Shown here: positions 2,858 to 16,333 of the stretch, one piece after another
How positions within the stretch are numbered: position 1 is the stretch's first letter
How the letters are laid out: each line of letters starts with the position of its first letter
IMG/VR virus record: IMGVR_UViG_3300020187_000010
Direction: 5' to 3' (one strand)
From: a virus
Length of the DNA: 64,000 nt
Translations under genes and position numbers: made by a program
Notes under the pieces: model-generated
Seen by the model: the letters and a program-made list of their open reading frames with translations, nothing else
Database searches by the model: none
Told to the model about the DNA's origin: nothing

Positions 2858-3553
2858 TTATTCGTCTGAACTAATTTCTTCGAGTAAATCTTCGCGAAGT
2901 TCAGCGGATAGTTGGGAAGTATCGAAAGTGAAAGATACTGTACATCTCCAACAGTCAGTCTTCGCGGCATGATAGAACAATCTTTCGGGTTCACCGTAAT
3001 GACCAAAGTATGCTGCCTTGCACTGCCACCCTGGCTTATCTTCCATCACCACAACTTCTTTTGATATAGGATCTACATATTCGAATTGACCTTCTCCAGT
3101 TTCCGACCACGTGAAGATCAAATTATACGCTGCTGCATTTGCATTATTGTGCCAAGAGATAAAACCACCGGGCGGATACCATGCGGTTAGTGCATTATTT
3201 TTCACACCCAACCAATTCATAAGTCCTTGATTCATGTGCGCGAGTTCTGCGGTTCTATCTTTTCTTACCGAGGGATGAACCCCGTTATTGAAAAATTCAT
3301 GTCCCTTGCGACCAACACTCATTTCATAACCATACATCTGATCGGGAAATCCTTCGTGTCGGGTTCCTTGATCTAATATTTCTTCCAGATGACCTTTACC
3401 CGCCCAGAAATGTCTATTCCGTGATTCGTGAGAACAACTCTTATGAAATGTTTCCTCGAAGTCAGGGATATCTCTGGTCAAGAAATCTCGATAGGCATTT
3501 AATTTCACCAATAAGTCTTGGTTCATCACCGGAATGTCTTGCATATAACTCAT
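2858..3553 (-). CDS. Putative 2OG-Fe(II) oxygenase/cupin-like protein
   Basis: YPPGGFISWHNN...LIFTWS...FYHAA pattern resembling a double-stranded beta-helix with His ligands. Confidence 0.5.
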   Translation of the reverse strand: MSYMQDIPVMNQDLLVKLNAYRDFLTRDIPDFEETFHKSCSHESRNRHFWAGKGHLEEILDQGTRHEGFPDQMYGYEMSVGRKGHEFFNNGVHPSVRKDRTAELAHMNQGLMNWLGVKNNALTAWYPPGGFISWHNNANAAAYNLIFTWSETGEGQFEYVDPISKEVVVMEDKPGWQCKAAYFGHYGEPERLFYHAAKTDCWRCTVSFTFDTSQLSAELREDLLEEISSDE

Positions 3554-4284
3554 ATAATATATCCGTCCTTATCTAATCCACAGGAATAATGTCTGACAAT
3601 AACTTCACCTTCTGGTCTAGTCCTTGCCCAGTTGAATGCGTTATAATAGTTCCAACGCAAATCATCTTCCAAGATACCATACTTCAGGTCTTTGTATTTA
3701 GGTTCTTTCTCGGTCAACCACCAAAGACTGAACTGATCCCATGACCGAAGACTTTCTATATATCCTTCAGGCCACCAGTCACGATCCATTTGTCTGCGTG
3801 TGAGATCCCACCAATCATCCATGAACTCACGTACAATAGGTTTGGTCATATCGTAAAGTGCAACACCACCACATAGAGTGAACTTGGATGGGCCATCGGG
3901 AGTATCAAAACTTCTTTCGGCATAGACATATTCACGATCATCGGTCAATTCAGAGAATAAGATGTCTTCGTCACGTCTTTCCAATTCATCAAAACAAATG
4001 CGGATATCTTCGTGTTCCACTTCCATATCAACATCGAGGTACATGGTTAGGTCATATGGAGAACGAGCCATACCATCTAGTTTTGCACGGTAGTGGGATG
4101 AACACCATTCAACATTATCAAATAAATCTCGGTGTATTTCTTCGAACATCCACTCTTCGCAGAATAGTGTAATCTTCGCATCTTCGTAATAATCCAGAAT
4201 AGATTCTGCTAGATTGATCGCATACCGATAGAAGTTAATCTTATTCGATGCAACCAACACATAACCTTTAGACTTCTCAGACAT
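3550..4284 (-). CDS. GT-A fold glycosyltransferase
   Basis: SPYDLTMYLDVD (DxD), CGGVALY, WDQFSLW motifs; start taken at MSEKSKG. Confidence 0.75.
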   Translation of the reverse strand: MSEKSKGYVLVASNKINFYRYAINLAESILDYYEDAKITLFCEEWMFEEIHRDLFDNVEWCSSHYRAKLDGMARSPYDLTMYLDVDMEVEHEDIRICFDELERRDEDILFSELTDDREYVYAERSFDTPDGPSKFTLCGGVALYDMTKPIVREFMDDWWDLTRRQMDRDWWPEGYIESLRSWDQFSLWWLTEKEPKYKDLKYGILEDDLRWNYYNAFNWARTRPEGEVIVRHYSCGLDKDGYII

Positions 4285-4732
4285 CTTCCTCAACTCCAAG
4301 TTCTTCTTTTAAAAGCAACATAGCAAAAAGATTCGCTTCTACCTTGGACTTTGCTCGTCTAAGTTTAGACTTGAGTTTTCTGTTCTTAGAGTTTTTAATT
4401 TCTTCGGTTTCGAAGATTTCTAATTTATAGTTAAAGAGTTCTTCTAACTTACGTGCACGTGCGTGTTCCACATCACGTTGTTTATCTTCTTCTTTTTCGG
4501 CAGCTTTACGAATCTTACGGTCTTCGGTATTTCTATCTACAGACTCTTCACCTAAAGCATCAATGACTTCATTGAACAATTCATTTTCACTACCATCCTT
4601 ATTCTTGCGACTCAACATCATTACTTGTCGGGTCTCGCGATCCAGATCATCTTTCATTTCTAGGATACAGTTGAGTTTTTCTTTCTCCTCTGTTTCCCAG
4701 AACGCATTATCCATCCATCTTTTATAACTCAT
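4277..4732 (-). CDS. Hypothetical protein (charged, helical; possible chaperone)
   Basis: 151-aa ORF with GGAG SD; overlaps the downstream GT gene. Confidence 0.7.
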   Translation of the reverse strand: MSYKRWMDNAFWETEEKEKLNCILEMKDDLDRETRQVMMLSRKNKDGSENELFNEVIDALGEESVDRNTEDRKIRKAAEKEEDKQRDVEHARARKLEELFNYKLEIFETEEIKNSKNRKLKSKLRRAKSKVEANLFAMLLLKEELGVEEDV

Positions 4733-4760: not shown

Positions 4761-4789
4761 ATTATACTATATATCAAAAGATTAAGCAA
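4761..4789 (-). promoter_or_regulatory. Sigma70-type promoter TTGCTT-N17-TATAAT for the 4732/4284/3553 genes
   Basis: 17-bp spacer and perfect -10; overlaps the stop of the 1786-aa gene. Confidence 0.55.
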
Positions 4790-7700
4790 CCCTTACGTAC
4801 AAGGTATATGTCTCAATCACTCCTGTTCCGGAATCAACAGTTGTTCCGGTATAATTACCAGTAAAGTTTCTGGCATAATTTCCTGCGAATGTTCTACTAT
4901 AGTTACCCGCAAAACCTCTACTATAATTACCAGTAAAGTCACCTAAGTATGACGAGGTTCTAGTTCTAGTAGAATCTATGGTATATGCTGAATTTCGACT
5001 TCTACTAAAAGTGGATACTCTAGTTCGTGCAGAGGTTCTGACCGAAGTTCTTGAGTAGTCCCCAACAAAAGTTCTACTATAGTTACCAGTAAAGTCTCCG
5101 ACATAATTAGAAGATCGGGTTCTTGCATATTCACCAACAAAGGTTCTATTGTAGTTACCCACAAAGTTACCCGCAAAGTCTGAAGTAGAATCCCGAGTAT
5201 ATTCTCCTACAAAGTTTCTGTTGTAGTTACCAACAAAATCTCCTACGAAAGTCCGGCCATAATTACCACCAAATATTCTTGAGAAGTTACCAGTGTATTC
5301 TCCTACAAAATCAGTCGCACGAGTTCTTGCATATTCTCCCACAAAGTTTCTGTTGTAGTTGCCGACATAGTTACCCGCAAAACCTCTTGCATAGTTACCA
5401 ACAAATCCTCTATTGTAGTTACCGACAAAATTACCCGCGAATGTACTGATACTATTTCTTGTGTATTCCCCAACAAAAGTTCTATTGAAATTGCCGGTAT
5501 AATTACCCCCAAATCCACGATTGTAATTACCTGCGAATGCACGAGCATAGTCACCAATAAAGTTTCCAATAGAGTCGGTTACCCGAGTCCTAGAATAGTT
5601 ACCTGCGAATGCACGAGCATAGTTACCTTCAAATGCACGAGTCGAAGTGCGGAGAGATATACGGGTATAGTTACCAACGAATCCTCTATTATAGTTACCG
5701 ACAAAATTACCTGCGAATGTACTGATACTATTTCTGGTATAGTTTCCGGTAAAGGTTCTACCATAGTCACCAACAAAGTTTCCAATAGAGTCGGTTATAC
5801 GAGTTCTTGCGTAGGCAGATACACGATTACGAATATAAGACGATGCACGAGTACGTATATATGTGGATATTCTACTACGGGTCGATATACGAGTATATTC
5901 ACCAGTATAGTTGCCGGTGTAGTTGCCTGCAAATCCACGAGTATAATCACCAGTGAAATTACCTGCGAACGTGCGAGTATAGTTCGATGACAATGTGAGC
6001 ATATCAGTGATACTAGGACTTGCTGCGTTTGTAGTATCATCTACACGAGGTTCCCAGAACTGTTGATTGGTCGCGGTATCTGTTGAGTAATACAAGTATG
6101 TTCTGTGGTATGCAGTAGTGTTACCACTCCAGACAAAATCATTCTGAGCGGATACAACTTTCTCACCCGCCATATTATAGATACCAGAGTCAGCATGAGC
6201 CGCACCGGTACCAGAACCTTCGGGGAAAACGTGACCGACTACCAAAAACCATTCGTTTTGAGATTCGGTACCATACCACCAACCTCTCGCTTGGAAGTAC
6301 GGATTACTGTTAGATGCACCATTACTTCTGTTCAATACTGTTCCGCCAACACCAAGATAGAATGAACCATTACCAATAACTTTACGTCTTACCCATGTAG
6401 AGAATCTGTATAGTTTGGTTTTATCAACTGAGAAAGCTGAAGTATTCCAACCACCATCTGCATTAGATGTCGCATCTTGATTTGACACATCCCAAACGAT
6501 ATCAGTACCCTTCGGAGAAGTGTCGGAAATACGTGAGTTACCGTCCCCGTTCTGATTATAGTTAGTTGCAGAACCAGTACCAACTGTCCAAGCAGGAAAG
6601 TTCTGCCACAACAAGTTAGATTGATCTGAGTAACGTGTACCAGTTGTACCTACGAACTGAACGATACTATCACGAGTTGATGTACGAGTATACGTAGAAC
6701 TTCTGTTTTGAATACGAGTTCTTGTGTAATTACTAGGTCTACTGCGTGTAGATATTCTAATGTATGCGGATGATCTACTACGTGCCGATATACGAGTATA
6801 TGTGGAGAGACGGCCGCGGGTCGATGGGTTTATTGAAGTGCGAATATATGAAGAATTTCTACTACGGGTCGATATTCTAGTATACGCAGAGATGCGAGTT
6901 CGCGAATAGTCACCTATAAAGTTTCGCGAATAGTTTCCTATGTAGTCTCCGGTATAATATCCAATGCGAGTGTAGTCGCCTATGTAGTCACCTGCATAAG
7001 ATCCAATGCGAGTATAGTCACCCGTAAAGTCACCTGCGTAATATCCAATGCGAGTAAAGTATAATGGAGTTATTCTATTACGAATAGATATGCGAGTATA
7101 GTCTCCGGTATAGTACAATGTGCGAGTATAGTTACCGATGTAATATAGAGTTCGAGTATAGTCGCCTGTATAATACAATGTACGAGTATAGTTACCGGTG
7201 TAATATAGAGTTCGAGTATAGTCGCCCGTAAAGTTACCTATATAATATCCGGTTCGGATATAGGTATCGATTCGATTCGAAGTACGGGTACTTGTTCTAA
7301 TGTACGTACCGGTTCCAATTCTAGTACGTATAGATGTTCTGATATAATATCCGGTCGCAGTTCTGGTTCTCGAAGAATATCTCAGGTAATTCGCAACCCC
7401 CAAATAATCACCGGTATAATACACTGTCTGTTTAACTATTCGAGTATAGTCACCTACATAGTTAACTATTCTATTATAGTTACCTACAAAATTACCAACA
7501 TAATACAATGTACGAGTGTAGTTACCTGTGAAATTACCAATGTAATACAATGTACGAGTGTAGTTACCTGTGAAATCACCTGCATAATATGATGTACGTT
7601 GGTAGTATAATGTAGCAATTCTGTCTCTTATTGATATACGTTGGTAGTTACCAGTCGCAATTCTGGTACGAATATATGTTCCGGTGGCAGTTCTGGTACG

Positions 7701-10142
7701 AATATATGTTCCGGTGGCAGTTCTGGTTCTGATATAGTCACCAGTTGCAATTCTTATACGAGTATAATTTCCGGTATAGTTACCAGTATAGGTCGAATCA
7801 CGAGTATATGTTAAAATTCGACTACTAGTTCGAAGACTCGTTCGGATATAGTTGAGTGTGCGAACTGAAGTTCGAAGACTCGTTCGGATATAGTTGAGTG
7901 TGCGAACTGAAATACGTGTGCTGTTTCTGGTATATGCAGAAGGACGAGTACGGCCATATTCTCCTACGAACCCTCTATTATAATTGCCAGTATAATTGCC
8001 AGCAAACGCACGAGTATAATTTCCGGTATAGTTACCAATGTAGTTTCCGGCAAATGTTCTTTGGTAGTTACCAGTATAGTCGCCAGCAAACGCACGGTTA
8101 TAATTTCCGGTATAGTTACCAGCAAATGATCTACCATAGTCGCCGACATAATTACCGACAAATGTTCTTGCGTAATTACCACCAAAGTTACCGACATATC
8201 CTTGGAATCTGTCGCGAGTATATGTTACCAATGAATTCCGTGAAGAAATACGAGTGTAGTTGGAACCTCTTGTTCTTGCACTAATACGTGTTGATATACG
8301 AGAATAGTTGCCGGTATAGTCACCCGCAAACCCACGTGAATAGTTACCTATAAATGTTCTATTATAATTACCAACAAATGTTCTATTATAGTTACCAACA
8401 TAGTCACCGGTAAAAGTTACAAGTCTATCCCGAACATAATTGGAAACTCGGCCACGAGTGTAGTTACCAATAAAGTCACCGGTAAAGTCTGTTACTCGAT
8501 CACGTGTATATGCGGATATTCTCGTGCGTGTATAATTGCCTGTATAATTACCTGCATAATTAGAAACACGAATTCTTGCGTATGCAGAGATACGAGTACG
8601 GCCGTAGTTACCAACATAGTTACCGGTAAAAGTCGTTAGTTGATCTCTGGTGTATGTGGAGCTTCTAGTTCGGGTATATGCGGAGATACGAGTACGGGTA
8701 CTTATTCTAGAGTATGATGATACTCTGTTACGTGCATAGTTGCCAACAAAGTCGCCAATAAAGGATGTTACTCGATCACGAATATATGCACTGGTACGTG
8801 TTCGCGAATATGTTGATATGCGATTACGTGAGTATGTTCCTGCGTATGCGGATACTCTAGTACGGGAATAATCCCCAACAAAATTACCAATATAGTTTCC
8901 CGAAAACACGGTTGTGTATGTAGATGTTCTGTTACGAGTATATGTACTCAACCTGTTGCGAATACTATTTCTACTGTATGCAGATACTCTTGTTCTAGAA
9001 TAATTGCCTACAAAGTTACCTGTGAAAGTATTGATACTATCTCTGGTATATGCAGAAGATCTATTGCGAACATACTCGCCCACAAAGATTCTAGAGAAAG
9101 TATCAGTACTGTTTCTAGTGAAAGTTGAAGCACGGTTTCTTGTGTACTCACCTACGTAATTACCGACATACTCACCCACATAATCTCTGATATATTGTCC
9201 CGAAAAGTTTCGAGTGTAGTTGCCAATATAATTTCCACCAAAATCTCGGGTGAACGTATTTGTGCTATTACGAGTGTATAGTGAAGTTCTTGTTCTTGCG
9301 TATGCGGATGAACGATCACGAGTATAAGAAGATGCACGAGTACGAACATATGCAAGTTCTGAAGTTGTTCTTTTAGTATTGGTCGCAGTACCTTTTGCGG
9401 CCCAAGTTCCTGCACTTACCGGAGTTCCCTGAGTCGCAGATCTTAATTGGTAAGAACCAATATTACCCACCTTTCCCCTAAGAGTTTTACAGTGTTGTCC
9501 ATAAGTGTAAGTAATCTGGTTAACAGATTGTTCTTGTAATCCACCAAAACTGGCGGCAGAACCTGACCCAATCATACCAATCGGAGACGTGGCTGTCGGT
9601 GCAGTCATTGCATCACGTTGGTAGATATTGTATACTGTAGAAGTTCCGTTACCTAATGTATCTGTGTATACAGCGGGGATAAATGTACCATAGTCCGCAC
9701 TAGGTGCAGAAGAACCGAGGTAAAAGGTGCCTGGATAATCAGATATTGCAATACGTGCATTCAGACGAGTACATAAGGTATCCATATCTACATCAGTAAA
9801 TTCATGAATACCTACATCACCCGAAGTGTTCCAACCAACCGGTCTGTTATAAAAACTACCAGTATAGTTCGCATCATTAGATAGTTGTCTTAGATTAGTC
9901 GTAGTTGTGCCGGAAGTGATAGATGATGCGGGATGGGTACCATCAGGTTCATTGTAGAAAGTATCAACGAAAGAACCAATGATAGTACCACTAGAGAGAT
10001 GCAAGTCTCCCGCAGAAGAACCCGAAGAATTCTTTAGTTGAATACCTGCAAGATAGGCGAGATAGTTCTCTTCCGTAGGAGTCATCTCCTTCAGATCACC
10101 ATTCGTACCTTCTAACTTTAGTGGGATATCAGATGCGGCCAC
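4782..10142 (-). CDS. Giant self-complementary tetrad-repeat fibre protein (1786 aa) with inserted carbohydrate-binding-like domain
   Basis: N-terminal ~264 aa and C-terminal ETYTLYVRVA shared with the paralog at 10191-13277; residues 265-1767 are [YF]xG[ND]/[YF]xRx/RxSx tetrads; globular insert aa 1166-1386; late promoter upstream; sits in the tail module. Confidence 0.85.
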   Translation of the reverse strand: MAASDIPLKLEGTNGDLKEMTPTEENYLAYLAGIQLKNSSGSSAGDLHLSSGTIIGSFVDTFYNEPDGTHPASSITSGTTTTNLRQLSNDANYTGSFYNRPVGWNTSGDVGIHEFTDVDMDTLCTRLNARIAISDYPGTFYLGSSAPSADYGTFIPAVYTDTLGNGTSTVYNIYQRDAMTAPTATSPIGMIGSGSAASFGGLQEQSVNQITYTYGQHCKTLRGKVGNIGSYQLRSATQGTPVSAGTWAAKGTATNTKRTTSELAYVRTRASSYTRDRSSAYARTRTSLYTRNSTNTFTRDFGGNYIGNYTRNFSGQYIRDYVGEYVGNYVGEYTRNRASTFTRNSTDTFSRIFVGEYVRNRSSAYTRDSINTFTGNFVGNYSRTRVSAYSRNSIRNRLSTYTRNRTSTYTTVFSGNYIGNFVGDYSRTRVSAYAGTYSRNRISTYSRTRTSAYIRDRVTSFIGDFVGNYARNRVSSYSRISTRTRISAYTRTRSSTYTRDQLTTFTGNYVGNYGRTRISAYARIRVSNYAGNYTGNYTRTRISAYTRDRVTDFTGDFIGNYTRGRVSNYVRDRLVTFTGDYVGNYNRTFVGNYNRTFIGNYSRGFAGDYTGNYSRISTRISARTRGSNYTRISSRNSLVTYTRDRFQGYVGNFGGNYARTFVGNYVGDYGRSFAGNYTGNYNRAFAGDYTGNYQRTFAGNYIGNYTGNYTRAFAGNYTGNYNRGFVGEYGRTRPSAYTRNSTRISVRTLNYIRTSLRTSVRTLNYIRTSLRTSSRILTYTRDSTYTGNYTGNYTRIRIATGDYIRTRTATGTYIRTRTATGTYIRTRIATGNYQRISIRDRIATLYYQRTSYYAGDFTGNYTRTLYYIGNFTGNYTRTLYYVGNFVGNYNRIVNYVGDYTRIVKQTVYYTGDYLGVANYLRYSSRTRTATGYYIRTSIRTRIGTGTYIRTSTRTSNRIDTYIRTGYYIGNFTGDYTRTLYYTGNYTRTLYYTGDYTRTLYYIGNYTRTLYYTGDYTRISIRNRITPLYFTRIGYYAGDFTGDYTRIGSYAGDYIGDYTRIGYYTGDYIGNYSRNFIGDYSRTRISAYTRISTRSRNSSYIRTSINPSTRGRLSTYTRISARSRSSAYIRISTRSRPSNYTRTRIQNRSSTYTRTSTRDSIVQFVGTTGTRYSDQSNLLWQNFPAWTVGTGSATNYNQNGDGNSRISDTSPKGTDIVWDVSNQDATSNADGGWNTSAFSVDKTKLYRFSTWVRRKVIGNGSFYLGVGGTVLNRSNGASNSNPYFQARGWWYGTESQNEWFLVVGHVFPEGSGTGAAHADSGIYNMAGEKVVSAQNDFVWSGNTTAYHRTYLYYSTDTATNQQFWEPRVDDTTNAASPSITDMLTLSSNYTRTFAGNFTGDYTRGFAGNYTGNYTGEYTRISTRSRISTYIRTRASSYIRNRVSAYARTRITDSIGNFVGDYGRTFTGNYTRNSISTFAGNFVGNYNRGFVGNYTRISLRTSTRAFEGNYARAFAGNYSRTRVTDSIGNFIGDYARAFAGNYNRGFGGNYTGNFNRTFVGEYTRNSISTFAGNFVGNYNRGFVGNYARGFAGNYVGNYNRNFVGEYARTRATDFVGEYTGNFSRIFGGNYGRTFVGDFVGNYNRNFVGEYTRDSTSDFAGNFVGNYNRTFVGEYARTRSSNYVGDFTGNYSRTFVGDYSRTSVRTSARTRVSTFSRSRNSAYTIDSTRTRTSSYLGDFTGNYSRGFAGNYSRTFAGNYARNFTGNYTGTTVDSGTGVIETYTLYVRVA
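4842..9350 (-). repeat. 12-nt (4-aa) period repeat tract with nested 30/42/60-nt tandem duplications, interrupted at 5985-6647
   Basis: Direct reading, e.g. 42-nt tandem at ~7826-7910 and 30-nt tandem at ~7655-7730. Confidence 0.9.
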
Positions 10143-10190: not shown

Positions 10191-13100
10191 TTATGCGGTT
10201 CTTACATACAGAGTATATGTTTCAACTGAGAATGTAGTATCCCTAATAGTCTGACCCACGTAGTCTCCTACAAAGTCTCTGGAATAATTACCGGCAAAGT
10301 TTCTACTATAATTACCGGTATAGTTGCCGCCAAAATCTCTAGTACTTGTTCGAGTAGACTCTCTAGTATATGAAGATCCTCTAGTTCTGGTGTATGTAGA
10401 CCCACGATTTCTTATAAAGTTTGTATTACTTACACGGGTATAGTTGGAGTTTCTATTTCTGGTAAACTCACCAGTATAATCACCGACATAATCCGCAGCA
10501 TAAACTCCAACGTATGTAGATGCTCTTAAAGTTATGTATGACGAAACCCGAGATCTACTGAAAGAATCGAACCTTGTTCTGGCTGATATTCGTGTGAAAT
10601 CTCCGGTATAGTTGCCGCCAAAATCTCTTGTGTAATTACCTGCAAAGTTTCTTGAGTAAGACGATACCCGAGTTCTGATATATGTCGAATAACGATCATT
10701 TAAACTAACTCTGGTAAATAGACCTGCATAATTACCGGTATAGTTACCGGCAAAGTCTCTCGTATATTCACCGGTATAGTTACCAGTATAGAGTGAAACC
10801 CTAGTCCGTATATAATTACTGTTTCTTTCTCGGGTAAAGTCTCTTGCATACTGTCCCGAGAAAGTAGAAGACCTAGTCAGTATATAATTACTGTTTCTTT
10901 CTCGGGTAAAGTCTCTTGAATATTGTCCCGAGAAAGTAGAAGATCTAGATCTTATGTAACTAGAATCTCTATTTCTGGTAAAGTCCCTCGCATATTCTCC
11001 CGCAAAAGTAGAAGATCTAACTCTTATGTAATTCGAATTTCTAGTTCTTTCATAGTTTCTTGAGTATTCGCCAACAAACAATCTATTATAACTTGATACT
11101 CTGGCTCTTTCGAAGTTTCTTGAGTATTCCCCAGCAAACTCTCTAGAATAAGTAGATACCCGAGTCCTAGTAAATTCGCGAGTGAATCCCTGCAAATATG
11201 AACTGACTCTTGTGAAATCACCAATGTATGAAGGAACCGTCCTAGTAGCTATAAAGTCACCGGTATACGTAGCGGGGCCAGCAAAGTAAAGACCACCACC
11301 CGATTTGTCGTATCTGACAGAATTCACAAATCCCGCAAAAGTAGATGTACTGTTACGAGTATATTCTCCTCCCGGCAATCCCAAATAACCAGCACCCACA
11401 AAGTCTCTTGTGTAATCACCAGTATAGTATAAAGTACCTTTTAGGTATTCTGCACGAGCTCGTGTATAATTACTTACTCTAACACCACCATATGTGGATG
11501 TCGAAGTGCGTGTAAAGTTTAATGTTCGAGTGAAGTTGCCAATATATGTTGAGAAACGAGTTCTGCTGAAGTTTCTATTATATGTAGAAATTCTATCTCT
11601 TGTATAGTCACGTGCATATTCACCAACAAAGGCTCTATTATATGCTGAACTTCTATCTCTAGTGAAGTCACGTGCATAGTTACCAATATATGTGGCAGTA
11701 TAATTGCCAGTGTAAGTTGATGACCTAATTCTAGTGAAGTCACGTGAATATTGTCCAGAGAAAAATCTGGAGTAATTGCCAGTGTAAGTTGATGACCTAA
11801 TTCTAGTGAAGTTACGTGCATATTGTCCAGAGAAAAGTCTGGTATAATCGCCAGTGTAATTAGAATTTCTAATTCTAGTGTAGTCACGTGCATATTGTCC
11901 AGAGAAAAATCTGGTGTAATCGCCAGTGTAATTAGAATTTCTACTTACTATTCTTGTTCTGGTATAGGTAGATGTTCTAGCACGTGTCGAGATTCGTGTA
12001 TATTCACCTACATAGTTACCAGCATAGTTGCCAAGAAACATTCTAGTATAGTTGCCGGTAAAGTCTCTGGAATAATTAGATGTACGAGTTCTACCATAAG
12101 CCGATTCCCGAGTCCGTGTGAAGTCTCTGGTATAATTGCCTGTAAATTCACCGGCATATGAACTGATACGTGTCGCTATGAAATCTCTAAAAAAGGTACG
12201 TGAAAAGTTGCGACTGAAGTTACCTGTGTAATTTCCAATATAGTTGCCTGTAAAGTCTCTAGAATAGTCTCCGACAAAAGTTCTACCATAGTCGCCAGTA
12301 AAATCACCGGTATAATTGCCCGTAAATTCTCTGGTATAGTTTCCTATAAATTCTCTGGTGTAATTGCCTGTGAATTCACCGGCATATGAAGTTGTCCCTG
12401 TGCGAGTGTAATCATCAGCGTAAGCCGAAGGTCTAGTTCTCGTGTATAAAGATGCTCGTGTGCGAGTATAGTTCTGTTCACTGACAACACGAATGGTGTT
12501 TGCAGCACTACCTACATTCTTCCAAGTACCACCGACAGGTATACCCTGCGAAGAAGTTCTAAGTTCATATGATCCGACCGCACCATCAATTGCACGTCTG
12601 GTTTTCGCACGTTGACCAATAGTCACTTGAACTTGACGATCTGTTAATGCTTGTAATCCTTCATAAGTACCAGAGGCGCCACTACTTCTCTTCAGTCCCG
12701 CGAGAGTGACCGAAGTTGGAGCAGTCATTGCAGTTCTACGCCATATACTATAGTCATTTACAGTATATGGGTTCCCCGAAGAGTCAGCACGTTGATCATG
12801 CAAAACACTAGGGACTAGAATGTCATAGTCTGCACTAGGTCTGGTCGAAGACAACTTGAGAGAGCCTGGATAGTCAGATAGTGCGATACGACCATTGATA
12901 TCATCGATGAAAGTGTTCAGATCATTATCCGACATTTCATATACATTACTTTCATAATGTCCGACTGGTTTTCTCCAATCACTATCATTCTCTAGTGCGG
13001 TACCATTGATCTGATATAAATTTGTTGTGGTGGTAATAACCGATTGGGCATTATATGGATGAGTTCCAACGGGTTCTGGATAATAGGTATCCGTCAGAGA

Positions 13101-13277
13101 TCCAAGAGACCTATTTCCACTTGCACTGAGCGTAAGAAGCCCTACATCGCTACTGTCCGCAATTGCGTTCTGTAGTCCTGCGAGGTAGGCAACATAATTT
13201 TTCTCGGTTGCATTTATCTGTTGGAGATTACCATTAATGTCTTTTAATTTTAACGGTAATGTCTTATTATCTGACAT
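10191..13277 (-). CDS. Self-complementary tetrad-repeat fibre protein, paralog (1028 aa)
   Basis: LPLKLKDINGNLQQINATEKNYVAYLAG vs IPLKLEGTNGDLKEMTPTEENYLAYLAG; repeats aa 270-1009; C-terminal ETYTLYVRTA. Confidence 0.85.
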   Translation of the reverse strand: MSDNKTLPLKLKDINGNLQQINATEKNYVAYLAGLQNAIADSSDVGLLTLSASGNRSLGSLTDTYYPEPVGTHPYNAQSVITTTTNLYQINGTALENDSDWRKPVGHYESNVYEMSDNDLNTFIDDINGRIALSDYPGSLKLSSTRPSADYDILVPSVLHDQRADSSGNPYTVNDYSIWRRTAMTAPTSVTLAGLKRSSGASGTYEGLQALTDRQVQVTIGQRAKTRRAIDGAVGSYELRTSSQGIPVGGTWKNVGSAANTIRVVSEQNYTRTRASLYTRTRPSAYADDYTRTGTTSYAGEFTGNYTREFIGNYTREFTGNYTGDFTGDYGRTFVGDYSRDFTGNYIGNYTGNFSRNFSRTFFRDFIATRISSYAGEFTGNYTRDFTRTRESAYGRTRTSNYSRDFTGNYTRMFLGNYAGNYVGEYTRISTRARTSTYTRTRIVSRNSNYTGDYTRFFSGQYARDYTRIRNSNYTGDYTRLFSGQYARNFTRIRSSTYTGNYSRFFSGQYSRDFTRIRSSTYTGNYTATYIGNYARDFTRDRSSAYNRAFVGEYARDYTRDRISTYNRNFSRTRFSTYIGNFTRTLNFTRTSTSTYGGVRVSNYTRARAEYLKGTLYYTGDYTRDFVGAGYLGLPGGEYTRNSTSTFAGFVNSVRYDKSGGGLYFAGPATYTGDFIATRTVPSYIGDFTRVSSYLQGFTREFTRTRVSTYSREFAGEYSRNFERARVSSYNRLFVGEYSRNYERTRNSNYIRVRSSTFAGEYARDFTRNRDSSYIRSRSSTFSGQYSRDFTRERNSNYILTRSSTFSGQYARDFTRERNSNYIRTRVSLYTGNYTGEYTRDFAGNYTGNYAGLFTRVSLNDRYSTYIRTRVSSYSRNFAGNYTRDFGGNYTGDFTRISARTRFDSFSRSRVSSYITLRASTYVGVYAADYVGDYTGEFTRNRNSNYTRVSNTNFIRNRGSTYTRTRGSSYTRESTRTSTRDFGGNYTGNYSRNFAGNYSRDFVGDYVGQTIRDTTFSVETYTLYVRTA
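10251..12470 (-). repeat. 4-aa period repeat tract with 72-nt (24-aa) tandem duplications in both halves
   Basis: 72-nt repeats at ~11700-11940 and ~10800-11040. Confidence 0.9.
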
Positions 13278-13291
13278 TCTCTTTCCTACTA

Positions 13292-16200
13292 TTAGTTTAG
13301 AAGAGTACCGTTTTCGTCATAGATTAAGACAGTTCTAGATGCCAGTTCATTTAACGCTTTAACAATACTATCATTATTTATACCTTCAAAGAAGTTGCCT
13401 GGCGCAGAACTGTCAAGTGTATTCAACTGACCAACTCGATTACTCAAGTTTAGAATGTCTGTGTCATTACTTGTGACTCTACCCTTTACGACTTCAATTT
13501 CACCAACCGCACTATCCAGTTGGGTGTGGATCTCATTGATAGCCGGAACAATAAACTTACTTGTTGTATCCAGTGTGGAGATACCTGTTCCTGACATGTT
13601 CGCAGTTGTACCACCGGACTGTATAATGTCCAGATGCGCACGGGTTATAAGTTTCTCGGACTCTATCTCGGTAACTGCACTATCTAGTTGCAAATGAAGT
13701 TCATTGATACCACCCGCAACATCTTGTGCGGTAGTGTCTAGATCTTCGTCAGTGTGGAATGCACGACCATGTATCTCTACCTTAGTTGCATCCATTTCGA
13801 TTGCAAGACCAGTACCAGAATAAATGTCCAGATGATTGCCAGAGTTTCGGAATTCACCAAACTGAACGGTTGCATCTTTAAGGAATACATTACCACCGTC
13901 TGCATCAAGTGTAATATCACCGGAGACATCATACGTCAGATTTCCTACAACATCAACTTCTTGGTTTGTACCAAGGTTATAGGTGAACTTAGTTACACCG
14001 CCATCCTTGAAGAAGATGTCCGCGCCATTCGCGTCAAGTGTAATATCACCTTCTGCATCAAGAAGAATATTTGTTCCTGCATTGATGGTTGCAGTTGTTC
14101 CTGCGGTAGTAGATGTAGATCCACCGGCAGTCTGTACAATACTACCTGTAGTAGTCAGACCATACGAGTCCGCACTATCATTTAATGCACCGATGATAGC
14201 ATTTACTAATGTGCCACCAACAGTAGTAGTTTTGTTTACAGTAATATTCTCTTTTACCGAACCACCAATAGTTAGACTATAACCATTTGTAGTAGTCAAA
14301 GATGCAGAATCACTTACCGATATATTATAATCTCCGGTAACAGTGATGTTGTTTGTTGCACCTAATTGATGACGGATGCGTGTGGATGCACCGTCTTTGA
14401 AGTAAATGTCGTTTCCATCTGCGTCAAGTGTAATATCACCAGAAGCATCGATCAAGTAATTACCATCTGCTGTATGGGTTTGTCCCAATGATGTTGTGGT
14501 CAATGTACCCAAAGTAGTATGAGACATTGCACCACTAGAAGTAACTGAGTAAGTACCACCAGCACTATCAGATTGGTTACCTGATACAGTTTGTGTAAGA
14601 TTACCGTTAACATCTAAAGTGTTTGACGCACCCATTCCATATGAGAAACGAGAAGTACCTGCATCTTTGAAGTCGATGTCTCCACCGTCTGCATCCAGTA
14701 CTATATCACCTGCCACATCGACAGTTAAGTTGCCGGTGGGTACGTCAATCTCTTGATTCGCACCCATAACGAAGTCGAATCTGATCGCCCCATTATCTTT
14801 AAGTGTAACATTACCGCCATTTGCATCAAGGTTAATATCACCCTCAACATCTGCGGTTAGGTTACCACCAGCGGTAAGACCCATGTTTGATTCAGTAACA
14901 AGATTGAACGCACCACCCGCAGTATTCGTCATCGGGCCACGAGTGTCGATATTAATACCGTTAGTCGAAGAGATGTCACGAGTACCAGAAGCACTGTCAG
15001 AGTGATCTCCTGCCACTGTAAGGGTGTTGTTACCCGAAGTAGTAGTAGTGAGTGTACCTGTAACATCTAAAGTATTTGCTGAACCCAGTCCGTAAGCAAA
15101 ACGAGTCGTTCCAGCTTGTTTGAGGTCAATGTCACCACCACCGGCATCCAATACAATATCATTGACAACATCAAAGATCAACGAACCGACAACATCAATC
15201 TCTTGATTCGTACCGAAATTATATGTTACCTTATTGGCACCACCATCTGTTAGATATAGTTGTCCACCATCAGCATCGAGAGTAATATCTCCAGATGCAT
15301 CAACAGTGAAGTTTCCCGCCACATTATGGGTTTGTCCCAATGATGTTGTGGTGAGAGTACCAAGAGTGGTATGAGACATCGCACCAGTTGAGGTGATGTC
15401 ACGAGTACCATTTGCACTGTCTGAGAAGTTGCCTGAGACGGTTTGAGTTAGATTACCTGTAATGTCTAAGGTATTAGATGCACCAAGTCCGTATTCAAAT
15501 CTAGATACTCCACCGTCTTTTAGGTCGATGTTTGCGCCATCTGCGTCTAATATAATATTACCAGACACATCAAGAGTATAATTGCCAGTTACGGCTTCGG
15601 TGTTAGTGGTACCCATCGTATATGCAATACGAGTAACACCACCATCTTTGTATGTAATGTTTGCCCCATCTGCATCGAAGATTATATCACCCGAGATGTC
15701 AAATGTCAAGTTTCCGGTACGAGAAACTGTACCGTCAGTAGCAAAGTCGTACTCTGTGACACCAGCATCTTTGAATGTGACATTACCACCATCAGCATCA
15801 AGGATAATATCTCCGGACGCATCGACAGTGTATGTGGTCGTTTCTATTCTAGTTGCACCGGTAGAGGTAAGAGTTGTATCACCAGATACATCGATATCTA
15901 AGTTAGAAGAAATATCAAGATCAAGGATACCAGTCACACCAACTGTGTTAGTGGTACCTAATGTGAATGCAATACGACTGACCGAATCATCAAGGAAGTT
16001 GATGTTAGATCCACCGGCATCTAAATTAATATCACCTACCGCATCAACGTTGAAGTTTGCACCGACATTGAATTGTACATCAGTACCACTTGCTTGATTA
16101 GTACTGATTAGTAAACGAGTTTGAGTTTCCCCTTGGAGGGCATTTCCCGTAGGATAAATGATTTCACCGGAAGATGCGTCAAACACTCTTTCGATTTCGT

Positions 16201-16333
16201 TGATGGCCATGACCACATCACTATCACCGTGAGTGAGAAGATCCACCGGATCGCCAACATTATAAGAGACAGTGTTGAGGTTGTCTCGCATTATCTTGAA
16301 CGAGTCACTTAGTTTCGTAAATGGTCTTGACAT
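13292..16333 (-). CDS. Acidic repeat-rich tail fibre/virion protein (1013 aa)
   Basis: 11 copies of D[AV]SGDI.LDADG..[VI].[FL]KD.G; several (V/A).AINE[IL] fibre motifs at both ends. Confidence 0.75.
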   Translation of the reverse strand: MSRPFTKLSDSFKIMRDNLNTVSYNVGDPVDLLTHGDSDVVMAINEIERVFDASSGEIIYPTGNALQGETQTRLLISTNQASGTDVQFNVGANFNVDAVGDINLDAGGSNINFLDDSVSRIAFTLGTTNTVGVTGILDLDISSNLDIDVSGDTTLTSTGATRIETTTYTVDASGDIILDADGGNVTFKDAGVTEYDFATDGTVSRTGNLTFDISGDIIFDADGANITYKDGGVTRIAYTMGTTNTEAVTGNYTLDVSGNIILDADGANIDLKDGGVSRFEYGLGASNTLDITGNLTQTVSGNFSDSANGTRDITSTGAMSHTTLGTLTTTSLGQTHNVAGNFTVDASGDITLDADGGQLYLTDGGANKVTYNFGTNQEIDVVGSLIFDVVNDIVLDAGGGDIDLKQAGTTRFAYGLGSANTLDVTGTLTTTTSGNNTLTVAGDHSDSASGTRDISSTNGINIDTRGPMTNTAGGAFNLVTESNMGLTAGGNLTADVEGDINLDANGGNVTLKDNGAIRFDFVMGANQEIDVPTGNLTVDVAGDIVLDADGGDIDFKDAGTSRFSYGMGASNTLDVNGNLTQTVSGNQSDSAGGTYSVTSSGAMSHTTLGTLTTTSLGQTHTADGNYLIDASGDITLDADGNDIYFKDGASTRIRHQLGATNNITVTGDYNISVSDSASLTTTNGYSLTIGGSVKENITVNKTTTVGGTLVNAIIGALNDSADSYGLTTTGSIVQTAGGSTSTTAGTTATINAGTNILLDAEGDITLDANGADIFFKDGGVTKFTYNLGTNQEVDVVGNLTYDVSGDITLDADGGNVFLKDATVQFGEFRNSGNHLDIYSGTGLAIEMDATKVEIHGRAFHTDEDLDTTAQDVAGGINELHLQLDSAVTEIESEKLITRAHLDIIQSGGTTANMSGTGISTLDTTSKFIVPAINEIHTQLDSAVGEIEVVKGRVTSNDTDILNLSNRVGQLNTLDSSAPGNFFEGINNDSIVKALNELASRTVLIYDENGTLLN

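Follow-up and report, generated by a model that had tools for sequence, protein, structure and literature searches.

A CBM-like domain looped out of the return arm of a putative fold-back fibre in an uncultured marine T4-like phage

In phage T4, the collar domain D10 of gp37 is made from residues 811-881 and 1010-1026, both supplied by a chain that runs out and back (PMC6957217). Fold-back needle tips have been described for T4 gp37 D10-D11 (PDB 2XGF) and, in similar form, for Bizionia phage C24 (PDB 6OV6) (PMC12028318). In siphophages, carbohydrate-binding modules (CBMs) are inserted in loops of the structural proteins 'evolved Dit', Tal and the major tail protein, and the CBMs of evolved Dit bind the host of the main receptor-binding protein, with lower affinity (PMC7291167). 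Here we describe a viral gene in which the two arrangements appear to be combined. It lies in a 64,000-nucleotide stretch of DNA (IMG/VR virus record IMGVR_UViG_3300020187_000010; "the window" below means this whole stretch) and encodes a predicted fibre of 1786 amino acids (aa). The fibre has two long repeat arms that are complementary in mirror order, and a 221-aa globular insert interrupts the second of them. The reading that we favour, and hold to be moderately probable, is a fold-back fibre in which the looped-out CBM-type domain acts as a lateral, exchangeable glycan-binding adhesin. Residue n of the open reading frame (ORF) begins at window position 10142-3(n-1), and the parts of the protein are as follows.

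4782-10142, minus strand: fibre ORF, 1786 aa, with a GTG start; the product ends in ...ETYTLYVRVA
9360-10142, minus strand: N-terminal non-repeat domain, aa 1-261, presumed to be the base or attachment end
7440-9359, minus strand: outgoing arm, aa 262-901, unbroken period-4 repeats
8199-8210, minus strand: R645-F646-Q647-G648 of the outgoing arm, facing the insertion point
7419-7439, minus strand: tip turn, aa 902-908 (IVKQTVY), centre of i+j = 1810
6648-7418, minus strand: distal return arm, aa 909-1165, with aa 901-645 as partner
5985-6647, minus strand: 221-aa insert, aa 1166-1386, made of an N-linker (TTGTRYSDQSNLL), a beta-sandwich core and a C-linker
6033-6623, minus strand: jelly-roll core, aa 1174-1370 (model residues 15-211), aligned to the entire CBM4-2 (1-167)
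4848-5984, minus strand: proximal return arm, aa 1387-1765, with aa 644-266 as partner
4782-4847, minus strand: C-terminal cap, aa 1766-1786 (...GVIETYTLYVRVA), and stop codon; the cap is kept in all full-length homologues
10191-13277, minus strand: 1028-aa paralogue with the same type of arms and no arm insert, used as an in-genome control

The arms comprise 1276 residues of period-4 repeats, with Tyr, Phe or Arg at position 1 and Arg, Gly or Ser at position 3. They contain no His, Cys or Trp, and the HxH motif is absent from the entire protein. An earlier note on this DNA, made from its letters alone, had proposed that a non-repetitive segment between FVG and N is looped out of the return arm inside a single tetrad, without loss of register. 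Its placement at 5985-6647 (minus strand), aa 1166-1386, is correct, and the motifs that it quoted are found there (e.g., DGGWNT at 1229 and FWEPRVD at 1362). Indeed, a repeat mask leaves aa 1155-1382 as the sole long non-repeat gap within the repeats, and the residues on either side (F1163-V1164-G1165 and N1387-Y1388) bear out the segment as described. Register is unbroken over aa 258-730 (~470 residues) and aa 1379-1753 (~375 residues). The shift across the insert, +1, equals 221 mod 4 and pairing resumes beyond it, so that the claim of a preserved register stands; that a single tetrad is interrupted depends on where the ends of the insert are drawn. Because these ends are uncertain by ~4 residues, we gave more weight to the balance of the arms than to register at the level of single residues.

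The pairing between the arms was examined with a mutual-information scan that compares residue classes at position i with those at S-i on the reversed chain and needs no training. For aa 930-1165, mutual information peaks at S = 1810/1808 (0.73, versus a mean of 0.37 with a standard deviation of 0.05; z ~7; 433 offsets). For aa 1387-1765, the peak is at S = 2029/2031, the best two among 747 offsets. The jump in pairing offset, from 1810 to 2031, is exactly 221, the length of the insert, and the arms are equal once the insert is removed; the segment thereby serves as the internal control of the hairpin model that the earlier note had taken it to be. Anticorrelation of Gly density between the arms, also free of training, gives offsets of 1809-1811 before the insert and 2030 after it, and each half of the post-insert arm yields 2030 separately. 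When the arms are aligned, Gly-type stretches ([YF]xG[NDE]) always lie opposite Arg/Ser-type ones, and the switch points match over all 640 positions. The insert sits at one such switch, and the outgoing arm changes from Arg/Ser-type to Gly-type units at R645-G648. On the conserved face, this pairing would set large residues opposite small ones (Arg-Gly, Tyr-Arg, Ser-Phe); on the other face like would meet like (Val-Val, Asn-Asn). A palindrome scan at the DNA level returned just two short chance inverted repeats. The mirror pattern is thus a property of the protein, and a DNA palindrome was ruled out as its source.

A fold-back alignment of the same protein has 643 pairs and only one gap (aa 1162-1382), with the tip at 902-908. 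The scoring matrix for this alignment was trained on the window protein, and the result is therefore circular for that protein itself. In it, 253 pairs separate the insert from the tip and 390 separate it from the base, in keeping with the off-centre position, about 255 residues from the tip, that had been claimed, and the insertion junction faces aa 644-649, which include R645-F646-Q647-G648. The proposed position opposite RFQG is thus reproduced, with a matrix trained on this very protein.

The trained matrix was then applied to other proteins, with z scores taken from block-shuffled arms. Homologues of the fibre have in common the N-terminal domain (45-99% identity across 17 viral contigs) and a C-terminal YTLYVR(V/T)A; searches of Pfam, PHROG and NCBIfam with the N-terminal domain (aa 1-261) returned no match. 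In the cultured phage C48C1 (Kyanoviridae), a homologue of 3347 aa (L001:2553-12596; OQ984149) is flanked by annotated tail-fibre and fibre-chaperone genes. Its fold-back alignment has 1042 pairs, with an unbroken outgoing arm (261-1302), a 61-aa tip domain (1303-1363) and five gaps, all on the return arm, that coincide with five globular inserts. One gap (1808-2122) holds the homologous domain together with a tandem duplication of 75 aa; the others are 2407-2559, 2640-2801, 2885-3054 and 3126-3252. The fold-back score is 573, versus 222 +/- 10 for block-shuffled arms (z 36). The duplicated stretch (KTRHRSYLYY... to ...NFSGQY), which spans the end of the CBM-type domain and the first repeats after it, may be either genuinely duplicated or an artefact of assembly.

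In P0003, a metagenomic protein of 1043 aa whose N-terminal domain is 37% identical to that of the window fibre, the same domain interrupts the return arm 63 pairs from the tip, where the alignment opens a gap of 230 residues (z 6.8 versus shuffles). The in-genome paralogue gives 303 ungapped mirror pairs (z 8.7 versus shuffles). Homologous fibres lacking the insert, or carrying other domains at other positions, were sought and both kinds were found: C48C1 has four further bulges, and five homologues on viral contigs lack the domain. When examined for unequal arms, these five proved to have equal, ungapped ones (775, 608, 606, 590 and 615 pairs). L005, from a near-identical phage, has an insert of 233 aa and an offset jump of 233; its distal arms are each 15 residues longer than those of the window fibre, and the balance is kept. 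In these three insert-bearing fibres (C48C1, P0003 and L005), the arms are equal only once the inserts are removed. Altogether, arm lengths balance in more than 10 proteins of 742-3347 aa when inserts are excluded, the return arm bears all seven bulges observed, and most of the excess mirror score is lost when the block order is reversed. RFQG is not kept in P0003 or C48C1, and a conserved docking motif opposite the insert was rejected on that ground; of the features at the junction, the change of repeat type alone recurs.

The family also has members of other build. P0207 and P0210 carry large tip domains. P0211 (1396 aa) and P0212 (1477 aa) have the family's N- and C-terminal ends, and their repeat blocks pair best with the adjacent block (A with B, around a globular tip), while two later blocks look self-complementary; these proteins may consist of several short hairpins in series, with globular domains between them, in place of a single long one. 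P0208 (1798 aa, truncated) has an insertion of ~700 aa (Laminin_G_3 plus FG-GAP-like repeats) within the N-terminal domain, not within an arm. P0209 (1758 aa) has the family N-terminal domain and ends in ETYTLYVRIA; its middle is rich in Tyr, Gly and Pro without the period-4 pattern and has nearly no mirror score (57 pairs), making it a family member with another kind of shaft.

The fold of the insert was predicted with AlphaFold2 from 66 homologues. The model is an all-beta sandwich with a predicted local distance difference test (pLDDT) of 90.2 and a predicted template modelling score (pTM) of 0.88, and its closest structures, by Foldseek and VIA-align, are the jelly-rolls of CBM4-2, CBM16, CBM22 and CBM61. 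The best VIA match superimposes model residues 15-211 on residues 1-167 of CBM4-2 (Z 12.3, root-mean-square deviation 2.8 A, 150-152 of 167 residues), and Foldseek reaches an E value of 1e-5 and target TM-scores of 0.68-0.70 against the CBM group. The suggestion of a CBM-like jelly-roll, made from the Trp/Tyr-rich pattern, is thus supported at the level of predicted fold, and the beta-sandwich anticipated for aa 1166-1386 is what the model shows, with Foldseek placing it in the CBM4/16/22/61 group. Further structural matches include the Klebsiella phage K2-2 tailspike, in its C-terminal domain, and a chain of the phi812 baseplate. When a library of viral structures was searched, the top hits comprised a tail family protein, tip attachment protein J, tail fibres and proteins described as CenC-like carbohydrate-binding, and the lead from a language-model protein atlas is CBM_4_9 (0.93).

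Sequence searches with the insert found no Pfam match at E <= 1 and none in PHROGs or NCBIfam, and a single-sequence search of the PDB gave no match. A profile search of the PDB matched LamG, pentraxin and toxin-receptor-binding domains only. These matches come from the LamG domain that follows it in the ~440-aa rows of the alignment, not from the insert; LamG/ConA-like identity of the insert was rejected in favour of the CBM4/16/22 group, since the Laminin_G_3 and pentaxin families of its relatives map to other parts of those proteins. Dozens of metagenomic clusters (P0073-P0206) are ~440-aa proteins of this build, with the domain at the N-terminus and then Laminin_G_3. The domain family as a whole has 1530 clusters at E <= 1e-3, with N-terminal, middle, C-terminal or tandem placement, and occurs also in surface and RHS-type proteins of marine Bacteroidota. 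In Vibrio jumbo phages (e.g., F86 and 6E35.1a), it forms the C-terminal part of a 1042-aa 'virion structural protein' whose gene adjoins genes for long-tail-fibre distal subunits. The residues invariant in the family are W1217, D1229-G-G1231, R1246, N1280, Y1282, W1298, R1347 and P1365.

The alleles of near relatives set the domain apart from the rest of the fibre. Three viral contigs (L003, L004 and L005) encode an N-terminal domain 99% identical to that of the window. Their inserts, 231-233 aa against 221, are only 61% (L005 and L003) or 69% (L004) identical to the window allele. Compared with L005, DNA identity is 98-100% over aa 1-690 and 1400-1786, drops to 81-94% along the distal arms and is lowest, at 56-79%, within the domain; protein identity falls to 52-56% over aa 1251-1350. 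Along the DNA, window positions 5940-8075 (aa 690-1400) differ from L005:10001-15481 in one contiguous mid-gene patch (56-94% DNA identity), which takes in the distal parts of both arms together with the insert. Because the distal end of the hairpin would be encoded in the middle of the gene, a single recombination patch (aa 690-1400) would swap the distal shaft and its bead together, with both anchored ends left as they were. Within the domain, substitutions and indels between alleles cluster in loops between strands, and the family-invariant residues are fixed. Moreover, the window allele is 70% identical to that of the distant fibre P0003, versus 61-69% to those of its near-identical relatives, a relation that points to cassette exchange. 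An exact search for the flank pattern recovered the three known viral contigs, one duplicate contig and one new metagenome contig of 5 kb; over domain and flanks, the allele of this last contig has ~69% identity to that of the window. By these comparisons, no other part of the fibre varies as much between near-identical phages as the domain does, and for that reason it is probably a swappable, side-mounted adhesin. The allelic pattern is the one expected of a host-recognition module and argues against a purely architectural role.

What we infer is a physical beta-hairpin that is trimeric, displays the domain sideways and binds glycan. The chain would run outward for ~640 residues of four-residue repeats, turn at aa 902-908 and return on the complementary arm, so that the N- and C-termini of the fibre would meet at the base. 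The two arms would lie antiparallel in an extended beta structure, and the example of T4 gp37 suggests that three chains would probably combine into a shaft of six strands; with a rise of 2.5-3.3 A per residue, 643 pairs would make it roughly 160-210 nm long. The return strand is predicted to exit the shaft between G1165 and N1387 (390 pairs from the base, 253 from the tip), fold a jelly-roll of the CBM4/16/22 type (~200 residues) and rejoin at the next repeat position, after which pairing would continue as though the domain were not there. The linkers of the insert, 13 residues on the N side and 18 on the C side (the latter with a short helix, SITDML), could bridge the gap between the termini of the domain and permit this re-entry. 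Projecting sideways, three copies per trimer would appear as a bead on the fibre, and the domain would most likely bind a host surface glycan as a second, lateral and exchangeable attachment point, that is, as an accessory adhesin. The role of a side-mounted adhesin is consistent with the predicted fold, the variability of the loops and the relatives in phage tail-fibre and tail-tip proteins.

Several observations weigh against this reading or temper it. The case for the hairpin and its bulge is one of sequence statistics. Adjacency of the domain termini, which the earlier note had expected, is indicated weakly, by isolated beta-bridges in the insert model (residues 12/17 and 229, i.e., aa 1171/1176 and 1388) and by weak couplings. 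A mean-field coevolution analysis of 218 domain sequences recovered the obvious strand pairings, and the N-to-C couplings 24-227 (rank 81 of 26,106), 21-226 and 24-228 are weak and fall in gap-prone terminal columns where artefacts are possible. Linkers of 13 and 18 residues make any test of terminus distance lenient, and a literature search on CBM4 gave no usable statement about its termini. As to sugar binding, a shared jelly-roll fold is not proof of function: Z scores of 11-12 were also obtained with cyclases, MAM domains and lectin-like inhibitors, and the insert matches none of the sequence profiles of characterised carbohydrate-binding families. The long insert-free homologues show the domain to be dispensable for building a fibre and carry no information on binding. 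Finally, one comparison raises a question about the balance of the arms. P0215 and P0217 are 100% identical to P0003 save for two deletions of whole 12-residue tandem units, which remove unequal lengths, 24 aa from the outgoing arm (422-445) and 48 aa from the return arm (945-992); the difference reflects either ~24 residues of slack in arm balance or short-read assemblies that collapse repeats. Three copies of aa 1138-1414 (the domain with 28-residue flanks, with alignment) and three of aa 617-672 (the facing outgoing piece) were predicted as a complex with a score of 0.00 and a partner pLDDT below 50, which speaks neither for nor against the hairpin. An AlphaFold2 model of the entire P0003 (1043 aa, small alignment; pLDDT 37.4, pTM 0.29) is uninformative, the arms being modelled as coil and the 12-residue tandem repeats as a low-confidence meander.

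Three other explanations were weighed. The bulges might be structural nodes for assembly, fixing the register of the long, degenerate arms, clamping the trimer or docking the folded-away fibre to the capsid, tail or a neighbouring fibre. The five bulges of C48C1, spaced 71-284 pairs apart on the proximal shaft, do resemble regular bracing, every bulge is on one arm, and a jelly-roll by itself is no demonstration of sugar binding. However, fibres of 590-775 pairs exist without any bulge, which shows that register and assembly can do without them. A purely structural node should moreover be conserved, yet near-identical phages diverge most in this domain, whose loops vary, and the same domain occurs at the free C-terminal end of the Vibrio jumbo virion protein, among tail-fibre genes. 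We consider this role unlikely. An enzymatic domain, such as a lyase or a GH16-like hydrolase that degrades or modifies glycan and clears capsule or slime, is less credible by far and would surprise us greatly: jelly-roll folds can host enzymes and the domain has conserved D1229, H1304, R1246 and R1347, but the best structural matches are non-catalytic binding modules aligned over their full length, and no catalytic family was matched by sequence. Phage depolymerases known so far are mostly beta-helix tailspikes.

The third explanation dispenses with the hairpin. The fibre would be a linear, parallel, trimeric and beaded one, like the shafts of T4 gp34 and gp37, which are linear strings of small domains (PMC6957217), with the domain as a single bead between two stretches of shaft, and the mirror signal would come from, e.g., antiparallel packing between chains or between fibres. 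That no structure prediction yielded a hairpin fits this proposal. We nevertheless think it improbable, more so than a structural role of the bulges. Mirror complementarity reaches z 36, 8.7 and 6.8 in proteins that had no part in the training and is mostly lost on block reversal; arms balance in more than 10 proteins (742-3347 aa) only with inserts removed; and the N-terminal domain and the C-terminal YTLYVR(V/T)A occur together in all members. Even antiparallel packing between chains would leave the domain as a one-sided bulge. The fold-back fibre with a lateral CBM-type adhesin is the reading that we retain. As a broader and tentative proposal, on which we remain almost evenly divided, such fibres would be a general display scaffold: a hairpin shaft that accepts arbitrary globular cargo as return-arm bulges with its pairing kept, bears one to five or more lateral beads in addition to a tip domain, and exchanges the distal shaft and bead as one mid-gene patch while the chain ends stay anchored at the base.

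The genomic setting is that of a tail module, with a baseplate-hub gene of the gp5/DUF2345 type (phrog_430) at 13292-16333, near the fibre gene. Directly downstream of the fibre gene, at window 2858-4732 (minus strand), are three small overlapping ORFs of 151, 249 and 231 aa, for which neither Pfam nor PHROG gave a match at the thresholds applied; small genes in synteny with them come after the fibre homologue of C48C1. A megablast of the fibre gene against phage records gave no match, and phage C48C1 was not mentioned in any paper found by a literature search.

If the favoured reading is right, receptor-binding modules have a new kind of mounting, as lateral beads off one fold-back strand and not solely at the tip. 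It would also furnish a rule for locating such modules from sequence, a bulge being a gap in the mirror alignment of the arms; so far the rule has picked out five cargo domains in the cultured C48C1 and one hypervariable cassette in an uncultured marine T4-like phage. The bulge in turn acts as an internal ruler that backs the hairpin model of the fibre. The domain itself belongs to a large family (>1500 clusters) with a predicted carbohydrate-binding fold, for which Pfam, NCBIfam and PHROG offer no profile; it is frequent among phage tail proteins and among the surface proteins of marine Bacteroidota. A scaffold that tolerates insertion of a whole domain at defined points could be useful in studies of host range in marine phages.

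Among described systems, the closest to the shaft is the gp37 needle, which follows the same out-and-back logic in a trimeric T4-like fibre, a logic that we infer here from mirror-complementary arms and a conserved C-terminal strand. The needle has ~70 residues per arm, whereas the window fibre has ~640, making the putative hairpin roughly nine times longer. Seven iron ions are held by His motifs in the needle; the arms of the window fibre lack His, and HxH is missing. In gp37 the binding site is at the tip, whereas here a globular domain is looped from the side of one arm, and the two proteins have no sequence match. A published fibre atlas (PMC12143355) mentions needle tips; the terms 'hairpin', 'fold back' and 'antiparallel' do not occur in it, and it has nothing on shaft-inserted domains. 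Evolved Dit resembles the window fibre in that a binding-module fold is inserted in a load-bearing tail protein, whose own pattern runs on to either side of it and whose fold is left undisturbed. Its scaffold, however, is the galectin-like domain of Dit in siphophages of Gram-positive hosts, and its module usually has the BppA fold; in the marine T4-like phage, the scaffold is a fibre arm of repeats and the module is CBM4/16/22-like. The CBM4/16/22/61 modules (Pfam CBM_4_9, PF02018) have the same size and topology as the insert, at 8-13% sequence identity, and the insert adds a linker at each end and a helix on the C-terminal side. In contrast, the domain that ends the Vibrio jumbo virion protein is a true sequence homologue of the insert (33-39% identity, E 1e-23 to 1e-30); its position is terminal rather than internal, and its carrier is without four-residue repeat arms. 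Fold-back needles and CBM insertions in tail proteins were thus already known, and it is their combination here that is new: a CBM4/16/22-like module without a library model, looped out of one strand of a putative repeat hairpin.

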